64,000 bases of DNA, from the NCBI GenBank assembly GCA_965215005.1, contig CBDCCZ010000054.1, positions 160,001 through 224,000 of the forward strand. The letters run 5' to 3'. Below the pieces are notes generated by a model that was not told where the DNA came from, ran no database searches, and saw only the letters and a program-made list of their open reading frames with translations. The DNA comes from Kofleriaceae bacterium. GTDB taxonomy: Bacteria > Myxococcota_A > Polyangia > Haliangiales > Haliangiaceae. The translations under genes and the position numbers were made by a program. Below are positions 13,375 to 42,142 of this stretch, one piece after another (the first letter of the stretch is position 1; each line of letters starts with the position of its first letter).

Positions 13375-13932
13375 TCAGCTCGTCGCCAGCGTCGTATCTC
13401 CGGTCACGGCGAGGTACGGAGCAAGCTTCTTGACGGTCTTATAACCAAAGCCCTTCACCCGACGCAGATCGAGGATTCTCGTGAAGCGGCCTCGACGTCG
13501 ACGAAACTCGAGGATGCGCTCGGCCTTGGCCGGTCCGATACCCGGCAGCAAGATGAGCTGCTCGGCGGTGGCGGTGTTGAGGTTCACCTTGCCCGTGAGT
13601 GTCTTTGTCCCGCTCTTGATAGCCCCGCTCGTCGCGGCATCCCTGGCGGAAGCGCTCTCGCGCGCATCGCTCGCAGTCTGCCCGGCGTCGGACCGATCAT
13701 CTCGCACCGATGCAGACGATCGCTCCCCCGGACCAGCTTCGTCGCGTGCTGGCAGCCGCTGCGCTCGCATCGGTGGAGCCACGACTCCAGCCGTGCTATT
13801 GGCGCGGGCCTCGCGACTTGCCGACCAGGTGGCCGTGCCGATGCAGGTCGCTGCGCATAGCGCCAGCGTTGCGAGCAAGCGCCGCACGCGATGCTGCTTG
13901 GGCGGCGCTTGCAGTTCCATTTGTGATTCCAT
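13375..13932 (-). CDS. comEA: ComEA family DNA-binding protein (HhH)
   Basis: Signal-like N-terminus; KVNLNTATAEQLILLPGIGPAKAERILEFR...RVKGFG; GGAG 6 nt before ATG 13932. Confidence 0.85.
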   Translation of the reverse strand: MESQMELQAPPKQHRVRRLLATLALCAATCIGTATWSASREARANSTAGVVAPPMRAQRLPARDEAGPGERSSASVRDDRSDAGQTASDARESASARDAATSGAIKSGTKTLTGKVNLNTATAEQLILLPGIGPAKAERILEFRRRRGRFTRILDLRRVKGFGYKTVKKLAPYLAVTGDTTLATS

Positions 13933-14073
13933 CCGTTGCTCCATTCGCTCTGCTCGAAGGCCCCTGCAACCACAGACTCCGTGCAGGTCTCCCAACGGAG
14001 TTTGCCGGCAGGGATGCAGGGGCGGAACTCAACCGTCGATGGCCTCCGCAGGTACAGCGAACGCCAAATCTCG

Positions 14074-14427: not shown

Positions 14428-14443
14428 CGCAAGCGCGGTGCCA
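14428..14443 (-). promoter_or_regulatory. sigma54 -24/-12 promoter
   Basis: TGGCACCGCGCTTGCG (GG-N10-GC); predicted +1 near 14417, ATG at 14414. Confidence 0.8.
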
Positions 14444-14472
14444 CGCGTAACCAGTCGTAATCTCGTGTCGGC

Positions 14473-14528
14473 TGTCCAGCGGCTCGGACACCTGGCCGAC
14501 AACCGGACGGAGCGTCCGGAGTGCGGCC
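14473..14528. promoter_or_regulatory. Three GTCC-N7/8-GGAC-type boxes (candidate regulator sites)
   Basis: TGTCC-agcggctc-GGACA (14473-14490), GGCC-N7-GGAC (14494), GTCC-N7-GGCC (14514); 20-bp period. Confidence 0.6.
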
Positions 14529-35772: not shown

Positions 35773-36081
35773 ATGTACATCGCCATGAATCAGTTCCGGG
35801 TCGTCCCCGAGCGCAGCGAAGACTTCGAGCGGGCGTGGCGAGAGCGCGATTCGTATCTCGACGAGGTCGATGGCTTCGTCGAGTTTCGCTTGCTGCGCGG
35901 TGGCCAAACCGAGGAGGGCAATCAGCTCTATGCCTCGCACACCGTGTGGCGAGATGAGTCGGCGTTTCGCGCCTGGGTCGACAGCGAAGCGTTTCGCAAG
36001 GCGCACGCGCAGGGCCGACTGACCGGCATCATCGCCGGCCCACCGCAGTTTGCCGGCTGGAGCGCTGTCGATCTGGGCTAG
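35773..36081 (+). CDS. ABM-family monooxygenase (IsdG/HmoA-like)
   Basis: MYIAMNQFRV...W...AFRKAH. Confidence 0.85.
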   Translation: MYIAMNQFRVVPERSEDFERAWRERDSYLDEVDGFVEFRLLRGGQTEEGNQLYASHTVWRDESAFRAWVDSEAFRKAHAQGRLTGIIAGPPQFAGWSAVDLG

Positions 36082-36859
36082 TCGCGGCAGCAGGCTGGTT
36101 GCTATCGCGGCGGCCTCGGTGGTGGTGTGTGCGGTTGCGGTGGCGGCGCTTTGGTATCTATATCAGCCACGCGCGGAGCCGGCACAGCCCACCGCCCCCG
36201 CGCCCGTCGCGCCAGTGGACGCGGAGCTTGCCCAGCTGCGAACGCGCTACGGCAACGCGCTGTATTCGCAGTACGACGAGGAGCTGTTTATCCGTGACTT
36301 CTTTGGCGACCGCAGAGGCGGGGTGTTCGTCGATGTGGGCGCGAGTCACTACGAGATCAACAGCACAACGTACTATCTCGAGAAGCACCTGGGGTGGCGC
36401 GGCATCGCGATCGATGCGCTCGAGGACTATAGGCAGGGGTACCAGCGGCACCGGCCGGGCACGAAGTTCTTCGCGTACTACGTCGCCGACCACTCTGGTG
36501 GCATTTCCGATTTTCATATTGTGCGCGGCAATGAGCGGCTTTCGACCGGCCTCAAAGAGGTGGCCAGCGACAAAGGAAGTCATGAGACGGTGGCGCTGCC
36601 AACGGTGAGCTTGACCGACCTCTTGCAGCGCGAAGGCCTCGAGACGATCGACTTCTTGTCCATCGACATCGAGCAGGCCGAGCCAACTGCGTTGCGTGGG
36701 CTCGATATAGAGCGCTTTCGCCCGGCGCTGGTCTGCATCGACGTGAGCCAGCACCGCGACGCGATCTATGCGTACTTTCGCCGCCACGGCTATGAGGAGC
36801 TCGAGCACTACACCCGCCTCGATCCACTCAATGCGTACTTCCGCCCGGCCGCGGAATAG
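36050..36859 (+). CDS. FkbM family methyltransferase with N-terminal TM anchor
   Basis: YSQYDEE, FVDVGA, GWRGIAID, IDFLSIDIE; start uncertain. Confidence 0.8.
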   Translation: MPAGALSIWASRGSRLVAIAAASVVVCAVAVAALWYLYQPRAEPAQPTAPAPVAPVDAELAQLRTRYGNALYSQYDEELFIRDFFGDRRGGVFVDVGASHYEINSTTYYLEKHLGWRGIAIDALEDYRQGYQRHRPGTKFFAYYVADHSGGISDFHIVRGNERLSTGLKEVASDKGSHETVALPTVSLTDLLQREGLETIDFLSIDIEQAEPTALRGLDIERFRPALVCIDVSQHRDAIYAYFRRHGYEELEHYTRLDPLNAYFRPAAE

Positions 36860-36942: not shown

Positions 36943-37000
36943 GTCCGGCGTGTCGGACGCGGGCGTCCGAGTGGCCGGACGCGCGTCCGCTCGAGCGGAC
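36943..37000. promoter_or_regulatory. Three tandem GTCC-N8-GGAC palindromes
   Basis: Boxes at 36943-36958, 36965-36980 and 36985-37000. Confidence 0.75.
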
Positions 37001-37030
37001 GCAGGCCGTGCATTGTTGGGAACTTGGGCC

Positions 37031-37046
37031 TGGCGCCGAAGTTGCT
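37031..37046 (+). promoter_or_regulatory. sigma54 -24/-12 promoter of radC
   Basis: TGGCGCCGAAGTTGCT (GG-N10-GC); predicted +1 near 37057, ATG at 37058. Confidence 0.8.
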
Positions 37047-37057
37047 AAACCCGTCGC

Positions 37058-37738
37058 ATGGTCGATGCGGCGGAACGTCCTCGAGAACGAATGCTTGCTT
37101 GTGGCGGCGACGCGTTGTCCACCGAGGAGCTCTTGGCGTTGGTGCTCGGCAGCGGCACCCGCGGACGACCGGCAGATGCGGTCGCGCGCGAGCTTCTGGC
37201 TTCGGCGGGGGGAGTGGCGGCGCTTTCGCGGGCAGCGCCGCGCGAGCTTCTCGAGGTGGCCGGCGTGGGGCAGGCACGCGCCGCGCGAGTCGCTGCGGCG
37301 TTCTATCTCGGGCGGCGGGGAATGGCGCAGCTAGGAGCGCAAGACGCGGCGTTGCTCGATGCCGAAGGGGTGTTTCGCCGGCTACAGCCGCGGCTTGGGG
37401 GGCTGGCGCAGGAGGTGTTCGTGGTGCTTGCCCTCGATGCGCGCCATCGCGTCTTGGCCGAGCTCGAGGTCGCGCGCGGCCATTTGACTGGCGTCGACGT
37501 GCATCCACGGGAAGTGTTTCGCCCGCTGATTCGCCAGGCGGCAGCGGCGGCGGTGATCGCGCATAATCACCCATCGGGGGATCCGTCGCCGAGCGCTCAG
37601 GACGTGGCGCTTACCCTTCGGTTGCAGGCCGTCGGCGAGCTCGTCGGCATTCCAATCCTCGATCATGTGATCGTTACCACCAACCGCTTCGTCTCCCTGG
37701 TCGAGCACCTTCCCACCCTGAGCTCCGCAGAGTCATGA
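37058..37738 (+). CDS. radC: RadC family JAB-domain protein
   Basis: ERPRER, ELLALVLGSG, VHPREVF, AHNHPSGDPSPS, LDHVIV. Confidence 0.95.
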   Translation: MVDAAERPRERMLACGGDALSTEELLALVLGSGTRGRPADAVARELLASAGGVAALSRAAPRELLEVAGVGQARAARVAAAFYLGRRGMAQLGAQDAALLDAEGVFRRLQPRLGGLAQEVFVVLALDARHRVLAELEVARGHLTGVDVHPREVFRPLIRQAAAAAVIAHNHPSGDPSPSAQDVALTLRLQAVGELVGIPILDHVIVTTNRFVSLVEHLPTLSSAES

Positions 37739-39831: not shown

Positions 39832-40920
39832 CTAGCGGTGCTTGGTCTCGAAGTCTTTCATGAAACCGACCAGTTTCTCGACGCCGGCGCGCGGAAACGC
39901 GTTGTAGATGCTGGCCCGCATGCCGCCGACGCTGCGATGCCCTTTTAGACCAGAGAAGCCGCGCTGCTTGGATTCACGGAGGAACTCAGCCTCGAAGGCT
40001 TCGTCGCGGCCGCGAAAGCAGACGTTCATGTCAGAACGGCTGCCGGCGCGTGCGGTGGCGCGAAACGCGCGGCTTTCGTCCAAATAGTCGTAAAGCAGCG
40101 CTGCCTTGGCGGCGTTGTACTCGCCGAGCGCGGCGAGGCCGCCAAAATCGGCGATCCACTTGAGGACCTCGTCGAGCACGAAGATCGCGAAGGTCGGTGG
40201 CGTGTTGAACATGGAGTCCGCTTCGGCGTGCGTGCGGTACTGCAGCATCGTTGGCAGGTCTCGGCGGCCCTTTTCGACGAGCTCATCGCGGATGATGACC
40301 AGGGTGATTCCAGCTGGGCCGAGATTCTTCTGCGCGCCGGCGTAGATGATGCCGTAGCGCGCGACGTCAATCGGCCGGCTGAAGATGTGGCTCGAGGCAT
40401 CGGTGACGAGCGGGACTCCGCTTGGTATCGCCGGTAATTTCGCGTACTCGGTGCCGAAGATGGTGTTGTTGCCGGTCATGTGCACGTATGCCGGCGCGCT
40501 CGACCAGGTCATCGCCTCGGCCGCTGGAATGTACGCAAAGTTCTCGTCTTCGCTGGAGGCGGCGACGTGCACCGAACCGAATCGTTTGGCTTCTTTGATG
40601 GCCTTTTTCGACCACGACCCGGTGTTGATGTAGTCGGCAGTGTCGCCCTCGCCGAGCAGGTTCATCGGGATCATGAAGAACTGCGTGGAGGCGCCGCCTT
40701 GCAAGAACAGCACGCGATAGCCCTCGGGAATGCCGCCGACGCTGCGGCACCGAGCCTCTGCCGACTCGATGACCTCCGTGAACTCAGGGCTGCGATGGCT
40801 GTGCTCCATCACGCCGATGCCGGAGTCGCCGAGGCTCCAGAGGGCGCGCTGGGCTTTTTCGATCACCGGCTCGGGGAGCACGGCGGGGCCTGCAGAGAAG
40901 TTGTAGATGCGATCGCTCAT
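39832..40920 (-). CDS. serC: Phosphoserine aminotransferase
   Basis: [48 protein letters not shown]. Confidence 0.97.
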
Positions 40921-40921
40921 A

Positions 40922-42142
40922 TCAGGCTCCTTGGGTGCCGAGCTGGGTGAGCTCCATGCTGAGAATGTCGGGGCACGAGCGGCGTATCGCCTCGAGCTGT
41001 GCGTCTGACGGGGCCGCGGCCAGCTGAATGCGCGCGCACGCGGCTTCGGCTCCTTCGTAGAGCACGTTATCCATCTCTTCGACGTTGATGCGCGCTTCTC
41101 CGAGCACGCCGAATACTTTCGACAACACGCCGGGCCGGTTCTTGTGGCGCACCGTGAGTAGACAGGTCGCGCTGGCGCGGCTGGCGCGATTGACGCAGTT
41201 GGGGACTTGGCCGCTGGCGGCAAAGACCTCGGCAATGCGGGCAACTTCGAGCGCGATGGCATCTTGCGCTTGCTCAGTGGACGCACCGACGTGGTGGCTG
41301 CCAACCACTCGGTGGTGCTGCGCGAGCTTGCTTTCGAAGGTGCCTTCGGCCGCGCCCGGCTCATTGTCATAGACGTCGAGCCCAGCCCGGAGCTGTTTTT
41401 CGTCGAGGCCGCGCAGCAGCGCCGCTTCATCGATCACCGAGCCCCGCGAGGTATTGATGAGAGTCGCGCCGGGCTTCATCGCCGCGATGAACTCGCTGTC
41501 GACCAGTCGCTGGGTGTCGCGGGTGGCGGCAATGTGAATGGTGACGATGTCAGCGGCAGCCGCCACCTCGCGCATCGACGCGGCGCGGGTGATGCCAAGC
41601 TCGTCGGCATCATCGGCGGTGAGGCTACGCGAATAGGCGATGACGTCCATACCAAATGCCAGCGCGCGGGAAACCACCTCGCGAGCAATCGTTCCCATGC
41701 CGATGACGCCCAGCGTGCGTCCGAAGAGACCCGCCGCTTTGCCATACTCCTTCTTGTTCCAGCGTCCTTGGCGCAGCTCGGCGGCTTGGTCGGGCAAGCG
41801 TCGATCGCAACCGAGGATCAACCCCCACGTGAGCTCAGCCACCGCGATGGCGTTCTTACCTGGGCAGTTGGCGACGAACACGCCCCCGCGCGAGGCTGCG
41901 GCCACGTCGATGGTGTCGTAGCCGGCGCCGGCGCGAATGATGAGCTTGAGCCGCTGCGCAGTCTGGACCGCTTCGGCGGTGACCCGCGTCGAGCGCACGA
42001 CGAGGACGTCGGGCTCGTGTTGGCTCAGTGCTGCTGGCAGCGCATCCGCGCTCAGGCTCGGCTCACTGATGACGTCGTGGCCGGCGCGCTCGAGTGCGTC
42101 GCGGCCGACAGCTTCGAGCTTGTCGGCGATCAGAACCTTCAT
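40922..42142 (-). CDS. serA: D-3-phosphoglycerate dehydrogenase-like protein with ACT domain
   Basis: [33 protein letters not shown]; adjacent to serC. Confidence 0.85.

Follow-up and report, generated by a model that had tools for sequence, protein, structure and literature searches.

A predicted sigma54 regulon with an arrayed operator at radC, comM, recA1 and comEA in myxobacteria, and its possible part in DNA capture and recombination

In the window, i.e., the whole 64,000-nucleotide stretch of DNA analyzed here, radC is preceded by three inverted repeats, an IHF-like site and a sigma54 -24/-12 element (Table 1). The initial annotation had described three boxes, a 30-bp spacer, a -24/-12 element and a nearly leaderless radC at this locus, and all of these were recovered: the ATG of radC lies 27 nt past the T of the TGG, which corresponds to about +1 to +3 of the predicted transcript. 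The IHF-like site was compared with the E. coli IHF consensus, WATCARNNNNTTR. An FkbM-family methyltransferase gene (36050-36859) is located directly upstream of the array, and downstream of radC the minus strand carries what is presumably a serA/serC-like pair (39832-42142), named from its sequence. The same geometry had been noticed ahead of a small gene next to comEA, and this was borne out, as the proximal box of the second array ends 30 bp upstream of TGGCACCGCGCTTGCG; moreover, each of the 27 genomes with the small gene has comEA downstream of it. The designation of the small gene by an SSB tail is not supported as an SSB assignment, since its product has no sequence match in Pfam, NCBIfam or PDB and no clear fold match. 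Foldseek yielded no match at E 0.001 and the best VIA Z was 3.1, which is not evidence of a different fold; the model reached a pLDDT of 73, and the nearest named ESM cluster was DUF736 at 0.78, which is a lead only. The protein search detected three relatives only, and one unnamed PHROG was found in 6 of the 28 members. We infer that the small protein might be SSB-like and handle single-stranded DNA.

Table 1. Features of the radC and small-gene/comEA promoters in the window and further sites of the same geometry in the source genome (contig:position)
Feature	Position	Strand	Remarks
Operator box 1, distal, putative enhancer site	36943..36958		GTCCGGCGTGTCGGAC, GTCCG-N6-CGGAC
Operator box 2	36965..36980		GTCCGAGTGGCCGGAC
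Operator box 3, proximal	36985..37000		GTCCGCTCGAGCGGAC; ends 30 bp before the sigma54 TGG
IHF-like site, radC	37014..37026	+	6/9 informative positions of the consensus WATCARNNNNTTR; same register as the peak over the 54 promoters of other genomes
sigma54 -24/-12 element, radC	37031..37046	+	TGGCGCCGAAGTTGCT, GG-N10-GC
radC	37058..37738	+	UPF0758 N-terminal domain and RadC JAB domain; NF000642, TIGR00608 over cut-off
Second operator array, small-gene/comEA promoter	14474..14528		one near-perfect and two degenerate boxes
IHF-like site, small-gene/comEA	14448..14460	-	TTACGACTGGTTA, 6/9
sigma54 -24/-12 element, small-gene/comEA	14428..14443	-	TGGCACCGCGCTTGCG
Small conserved gene, ~90 aa	14139..14414	-	four-strand beta domain and acidic tail, end xxxPF
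comEA-like gene	13375..13995	-	HHH_3 over cut-off; ComEA TIGR models just below cut-off
Same geometry at comM	C38:160473		TIGR00368 over cut-off
Same geometry at one of two recA paralogues	C38:170195		
Same geometry at RAYT-like transposase	C31:40001		
Same geometry at Rpn-family nuclease	C39:58838		
Same geometry at two genes without known function	C33:18584, C14:99333		

Counted singly, GTCC-N8-GGAC was not enriched in the 6.2-Mb source genome (G000, 65% GC), with 63 copies as compared to 17-60 for other spacer lengths, and GTCCG-N6-CGGAC was mildly enriched (16 copies vs. 0-10 at other spacings). In the window, GTCC-N8-GGAC occurs four times against 1.41 expected, and at least four matches were seen in 3 of 100 shuffles. 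The triple box cluster is the sole one in the genome, and 0 of 40 whole-genome shuffles produced any. The remaining sites of Table 1 come from a genome scan for sigma54-like sites with upstream half-sites. Under strict criteria for the architecture, which were tuned on these very sites and miss comM and the C14 site, six sites were obtained as compared to 0-2 across 40 shuffles. A loose form of the architecture was not above chance in this genome (8 vs. 2, 9 and 8 in shuffles), and in 31 genomes a loose box plus sigma54 pattern showed no excess over its reversed control; a tight pattern gave 95 matches in 22 genomes vs. 21 for the reversed control. The genome has an ORF with an rpoN box, about 48 domains of enhancer-binding proteins (EBPs), and EBPs of the GAFTGA type. 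The two boxed genes without known function encode a protein of 154 aa without family match (C33:18614-19075) and one of 233 aa with a weak zinc-finger match (C14:98605-99303).

The conservation of the promoters was analyzed in 30 relatives, 18 from the same family, nine from the same order and three from the same class, and the tallies cover these other genomes only. A promoter was counted as having the architecture if a sigma54 site scoring 10.5 or more lay no farther than 250 bp from the aligned start and was preceded, 25-115 bp upstream, by two or more exact half-sites. By this rule, the architecture was found at radC in 22 of 28 genomes, at comM in 21 of 26, at recA1 in 17 of 23 and at the small-gene/comEA operon in 23 of 25, whereas the controls recA2 (0/26), comEC (0/28) and dprA (0/28) lacked it; since kin are not independent, these tallies are not to be read as p-values. 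In each of the sets for the small gene, dprA and comEC, one locus with a short flank was skipped; the second copy in genome G026 is not part of the comM set, and the recA sets are without copies directly behind comM or not fetched. For dprA, which is probably operon-internal, 250-300 bp upstream were examined. The -24 GG and -12 GC, ten bases apart, were present at radC in 26 of 28 genomes, at all 26 comM loci and at all 25 small-gene loci. In a quick IQ-TREE phylogeny of 51 recA rows, boxed and unboxed paralogues split, and the unboxed clade of 27 rows had an SH-aLRT support of 100. The proposal of a sigma54 promoter with a new operator array is supported at orthologous promoters and extends to comM, recA1 and the comEA operon besides radC. 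The suggested search for the motif at other competence genes had a mixed outcome: comM carries it, and comEC and dprA under the above rule, as well as pilA, pilM, pilB/T and the comF-like gene in this genome, do not. Likewise, ssb in this genome is without the architecture of boxes and sigma54 site. A weak single box at comEC in this genome was not conserved in the others, and comEC was rejected as a member. Genome G002 had been considered as a clean loss control since it is without comM and recA1; it retains a boxed comEA operon, however, and thus excludes nothing. The highly reduced order member G022 (1.6 Mb, 98% complete) has three EBPs only; it still has radC, preceded by a sigma54 site, as well as two recA genes, comEC and dprA, and comM and the small gene were not found in it.

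Promoter anatomy was deduced from 54 promoters of genomes other than this one; of 78 loci, 55 had the three or more half-sites that the filter required. The family consensus is YGTCCG-N5/6-CGGACR, with alternating half-sites about one helical turn apart: GTCCG is preceded by a pyrimidine in 121 of 126 cases and CGGAC takes the form CGGACR in 130 of 137. The step from GTCCG to CGGAC is 10-11 bp and that from CGGAC to GTCCG 10 bp; like halves repeat every 20-23 bp. The perfect GTCC-N8-GGAC box described initially thus applies to radC, but not as the form of the family, in which the spacer between GTCCG and CGGAC is N5 or N6. The last CGGAC ends at -30 (15), -41 (9) or -50 (6) from the TGG in these 54 promoters, with the positions overall being -30, -41, -50 to -52, -60 to -63 and -71/-72, and the 30-bp gap of radC is the modal distance. 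Phase coherence was best at 10.5 bp (R = 0.41, 130 half-sites), i.e., the half-sites are helically phased to the promoter. In the spacer, T prevails at -17/-16/-15, C at -14 and TT at -7/-6, which is the register of the E. coli IHF consensus, and the mean match to this consensus over the 54 promoters peaks at -17 with 4.35 of 9, compared to 1.4-3.4 elsewhere. In this genome, the match to the same consensus is 9/9 at comM, 8/9 at recA1 and 6/9 at radC. It had been remarked that the boxes are closer to the promoter than typical enhancers, and this is correct, with 30 bp as compared to a typical distance of 80-150 bp (PMC7910581); the IHF-like site in the spacer may account for the short distance. 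The start of comM lies 28-31 nt past the TGG in 20 of 21 boxed promoters, which suggests that comM is probably leaderless throughout; the distance varies at radC (25-100 nt) and at the small gene (22-126 nt), where a fixed leaderless start does not hold.

Across the phylum, a sigma54 site was found at 31 of 50 inspected comM loci (68 other genomes have comM), and at least two exact half-sites in five. By eye, variant repeats such as GTCCA/TGGAC and GAGAC/GATAC were recognized in other lineages. In Myxococcaceae, the family of the record labelled Hyalangium, a sigma54 site precedes comM at 23 of 24 loci, and a variant box RTCCN-N4..7-NGGAY (background 1.5% per 90 bp) was found at seven of the 24. 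In five Myxococcaceae genomes, a strong sigma54 site precedes the comM-linked recA in four, and a LexA box precedes the other recA in four, with one poor match of two mismatches at the comM-linked recA. The M. xanthus order MXAN_1443 (AAA ATPase, 547 aa), oxidoreductase, recA1 is the same arrangement as that of the comM-linked recA, and the M. xanthus genes are recA1 MXAN_1441, comM MXAN_1443 (by synteny), radC MXAN_1952, MXAN_6587 and comEA MXAN_6588. No sigma54 site was found near comM in family f17. The comM promoters of that family (L309, L310, L312-L316, L320) have a common CGATAAC motif just upstream. This motif resembles a sigma28 -10 element and may reflect a regulatory switch in that lineage. 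In family f20, loci L326 and L329 show clusters of comM, recA and a canonical ssb, which at L329 are co-directional behind a sigma54 promoter.

Taken all together, these sequence comparisons indicate that the promoters very probably belong to a real regulon of sigma54 and an EBP. Its purpose is likely DNA capture and recombination, and we favor, with moderate confidence, the reading in which it captures and recombines incoming DNA through an EBP array and IHF, as a sub-regulon similar to that of late competence. The earlier idea of a competence-like regulon under sigma54 is accordingly kept for comEA, comM, radC and recA1; comEC is outside, and dprA, the pilus genes and the comF-like gene appear to be so, which suggests a sub-regulon that serves DNA binding and recombination rather than the competence machinery as a whole. 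We propose that about three dimers of one EBP would occupy one helix face of the array and that IHF would bend the spacer DNA, so that the activator could reach the sigma54-RNA polymerase at short range, the genes being off until the activator is switched on. Following this, ComEA would bind DNA in the periplasm, the small protein would presumably handle single strands, and RecA1 and ComM, with RadC, would carry out strand exchange and branch migration, while pili, ComEC and DprA would be under separate control. This assignment is in line with the view of ComEA, ComM, RadC and RecA as the proteins that bind and recombine DNA in competence (PMC12378983, PMC6237807, PMC8088505) and with comEA, comM and radC being co-repressed competence genes in Legionella (PMC12378983). 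In M. xanthus, RecA1, whose promoter has no LexA box, is the paralogue required for the integration of linear DNA after electroporation (PMC7029660). Moreover, in the supplementary data on growth and development of M. xanthus, MXAN_6587 was undetected in 14 of 14 samples and MXAN_6588 (comEA) in 13 of 14, and expression of radC, recA1 and comM was low (PMC6791715), as expected of a sigma54 promoter that is not activated.

An unlikely alternative retains the same sigma54/EBP/IHF promoter and assigns it to a LexA-independent response to DNA damage or recombination stress, in which comEA would be a mere passenger. Selfish nucleases often track damage, which counts for this reading, as does the position of comEC, dprA and pilA, all uptake genes, outside the regulon. 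It is further supported by M. xanthus recA1, which is UV-inducible with a delay and whose promoter is described as being without a LexA box (PMC7029660), and by the RecA1 protein, which rises by 2.3 log2 with mitomycin C and by 3.4 log2 in the lexA mutant (PMC12288472). ComM, RadC, ComEA and MXAN_6587 are absent from the protein table on mitomycin, lexA and ddiA in the same work (PMC12288472), which speaks against it but may be due to non-detection. The comEA operon, which would be the passenger, is the most consistently boxed member, and no SOS-type gene was among the inspected targets. Damage-induced competence occurs in other bacteria, so the competence and damage readings overlap.

Returning to the regulon for incoming DNA, its activator was sought among EBPs enumerated fully in six genomes (G035, G075, G032, G070, G002, G022) and partly in five (G009, G003, G004, G007, G029). 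The sole reciprocal-best EBP across G000, G035, G075, G032, G070 and G002 has FHA, GAF, AAA and HTH domains (G000:C58:78254-80041), and its gene follows a Ser/Thr kinase gene and a TPR-like one; the top NCBIfam matches of the protein include NorR and NifA, below cut-off. A clear orthologue (E <1e-40) is present in 47 of 59 genomes, and there was no match in seven genomes of the phylum whose comM is also without a sigma54 site. This FHA-GAF EBP is our best candidate for the activator, tentatively so and with the chances close to balanced, and by gene order (MXAN_4017-4018-4020) and length it probably corresponds to MXAN_4020 of M. xanthus. The kinase linkage and the FHA domain point to phospho-threonine control. 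Several observations fit less well: the gene has no box promoter of its own (0/10), it is present where the comM promoter is absent (5/6 f17 genomes, G096, G066), it was not found in G022 and G103, which have sigma54 sites or boxes, and its HTH is nearly invariant as compared to the box variants, with only a P-to-V change in f20 that also occurs in G075. In addition, MXAN_4020 protein decreases by 2.0 log2 in the M. xanthus lexA mutant while RecA1 rises (PMC12288472 supplement), which is the opposite of a simple activator-target relation.

It is rather unlikely that, with the regulon as described, the activator is instead an FHA-EBP limited to the order (G000:C40:26005-27528, between moaD/E and gspN) or another EBP. 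The order-limited protein is among the only three EBPs that the 1.6-Mb G022 has; throughout the order its HTH is conserved, and in G008, G014 and G018 its gene is driven by a promoter with boxes and sigma54 site, as positive feedback predicts. There is, however, no such promoter in 12 other inspected genomes of the order, and no orthologue was found in G021, G029 or G113, nor in G035, G034, G055 or G045, the latter four of which have identical GTCCG/CGGAC boxes at comM. Being boxed in three genomes but confined to the order, it is read as a downstream or auxiliary regulator. Other EBPs were rejected. Nla18 (MXAN_3692) is encoded by 1431 bp with a divergent kinase, as compared to about 600 aa behind a co-oriented kinase for the FHA-GAF candidate, and an Nla4-like EBP was not found in G075 or G103. 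PilR and PilR2 are each missing from a fully enumerated genome; pilM is without boxes, and PilR is disfavored because pilA is without them. The gene for the PilR2-like EBP upstream of pilM (G000:C21:1514-2970) is split over frames, probably by sequencing errors.

Further targets were sought in a species-wide pattern scan, in which 53 loci were inspected among 80 matches listed of 84 (the 27 others being mostly actinobacterial or Sphingomonas), together with 20 fetched pattern matches. The full architecture was found at about 22 of the 53 inspected loci, among them records labelled Kofleriaceae, Myxococcales and Myxococcota, labels that together with the gene content place the source genome in Myxococcota and probably in Haliangiales; many other inspected loci (Streptomyces, Sphingomonas, other labels and some Myxococcota) were tandem repeats or chance. 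The full promoter precedes comM, recA, radC and the small gene and, in addition, many mobile nuclease genes, with four unrelated nuclease families sharing it: RAYT-like, HNH, Rpn-like and Uma2. The RAYT-like HUH proteins (NF047646 and Y1_Tnp, both below cut-off) comprise several subfamilies with 24-40% mutual identity. An HNH-bearing multicopy element was inspected in eight copies in G018, where the pattern has 26 matches, and Rpn-like proteins with the promoter occur in G000 and fourfold in G011 (DUF4351). Each copy of the G018 element (L635, L663, L665-L671) has its own boxed sigma54 promoter and starts about 28 nt past the TGG, and the element matches an IscB model weakly and in the HNH part only. 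We infer that the selfish nucleases copied the promoter, so that their expression would coincide with the presence of single-stranded or incoming DNA and of recombination proteins. At L067, in a record that bears the label of a gammaproteobacterial MAG (Methylothermaceae), the full promoter likewise precedes a RAYT-like gene; comM of that record (L351) is without a sigma54 site, which may indicate mis-binning or horizontal transfer.

The presence of the array at RAYT-like genes, some of which have inverted repeats containing GGTCCGGA on both flanks, could mean that the boxes are REP-like repeats spread by the transposase without regulatory role, and dozens of single boxes are indeed scattered in G003. 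We regard this as very improbable, as the arrays are fixed in phase to the sigma54 site, occur at the same four housekeeping promoters across the order, are absent at recA2 and lie only on the promoter side of the transposase genes, whose REP-like flanks are of different sequence. Such flanks were seen at L059 (741-926 and 2177-2256) and L043, where RAYT-like genes have inverted REP-like repeats (AAGACCTCCGGTCCGGA) on both sides that differ from the array of the promoter. The single sites of G003 (L146, L150, L153, L156, L159) have the form GTCCG-(AT-rich N5)-CGGAC; the five inspected ones lie within ORFs or at their margins, away from any sigma54 site, and possibly represent a chromosome-wide binding site. 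The regulon promoters of G003 have degenerate boxes. That the boxes are palindromes that arose by chance, or that they form a terminator or RNA hairpin belonging to the FkbM-family gene upstream, is virtually ruled out by the tallies of orthologues and paralogues: despite the lack of genome-wide enrichment of the single box and the short hairpins that the boxes can form, the radC region folds no better than shuffles (z -0.30), a U tract is absent, and conserved arrays occur at unrelated loci whose upstream genes differ.

A wider interpretation of the sub-regulon for incoming DNA is possible, if on the doubtful side: a phylum-wide, kinase-gated competence switch, in which a Ser/Thr kinase and an FHA-GAF activator of the MXAN_4017/MXAN_4020 type would control ComEA, a new ssDNA-binding protein, ComM, RadC and a RecA dedicated to transformation, e.g., in predation, and whose promoter, firing during DNA uptake, would have been captured independently by at least four nuclease families. 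The questions addressed here are how myxobacteria regulate DNA uptake and why they retain two recA genes, and the prediction is that MXAN_1441, MXAN_1443, MXAN_1952 and MXAN_6587-comEA share a sigma54 promoter and one activator. If true, a competence-type circuit would be built from sigma54, an EBP and IHF, and a constitutive activator would render slow, hard-to-engineer myxobacteria naturally transformable, with possible use in natural-product strains. With the promoter captured repeatedly by RAYT-like, HNH, Rpn-like and Uma2 nucleases, this would also be a clear case of selfish genes timed to the recombination window of their host.

Sigma54 enhancers of three sites with IHF are known from the NorR type (E. 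coli norV), and promoters with IHF from the nifH type. The promoters described here are similar in having several dyad sites, an IHF-like site beside the -24 element and a GAF-containing AAA+ protein as candidate activator; they differ in the operator, in the position of the array 30 bp from the -24 element, in the DNA-processing targets and in the additional FHA domain and linked Ser/Thr kinase of the candidate. To our knowledge, no late competence regulon controls these genes through sigma54 together with an EBP and IHF. Contrary to late competence regulons, the present one leaves out comEC and dprA and includes a dedicated recA paralogue. Co-control of comEA, comM and radC is nevertheless shared with Vibrio TfoX/QstR, Haemophilus Sxy-CRP-S, Bacillus ComK, streptococcal ComX and Legionella RocC/RocR (PMC6237807, PMC12378983), and the likeness to QstR is that of a partial sub-regulon, as QstR covers comEA, comEC, comM and comF and the pilus genes are under TfoX. 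With LexA/DdiA of M. xanthus the regulon has in common that both touch recombination genes and that RecA1 is up in damage and in the lexA mutant; in contrast to the LexA regulon, the LexA box is at recA2, not recA1, and the account of LexA and the XRE protein DdiA names, in the parts consulted, no sigma54 control, radC, comEA or competence (PMC12288472). In a survey of sigma54, predicted promoters were enriched at COG2003 (RadC) across phyla (PMC12316311); its text and supplements, as far as searched, do not contain COG0606, COG1555 or COG0468 and, unlike the present analysis, give no operator, activator, regulon or link to competence. No description of the operator or of a sigma54 regulon of comM, radC, recA1 and comEA was found in the freely readable article texts that were searched, and the conserved regulon is apparently undescribed so far. 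A sigma54 activator is also needed, through PilSR control of pilA in Pseudomonas, Acinetobacter and M. xanthus, for type IV pili and thus indirectly for transformation (PMC8088505); by contrast, pilA is without boxes here, and the targets are DNA-processing genes.
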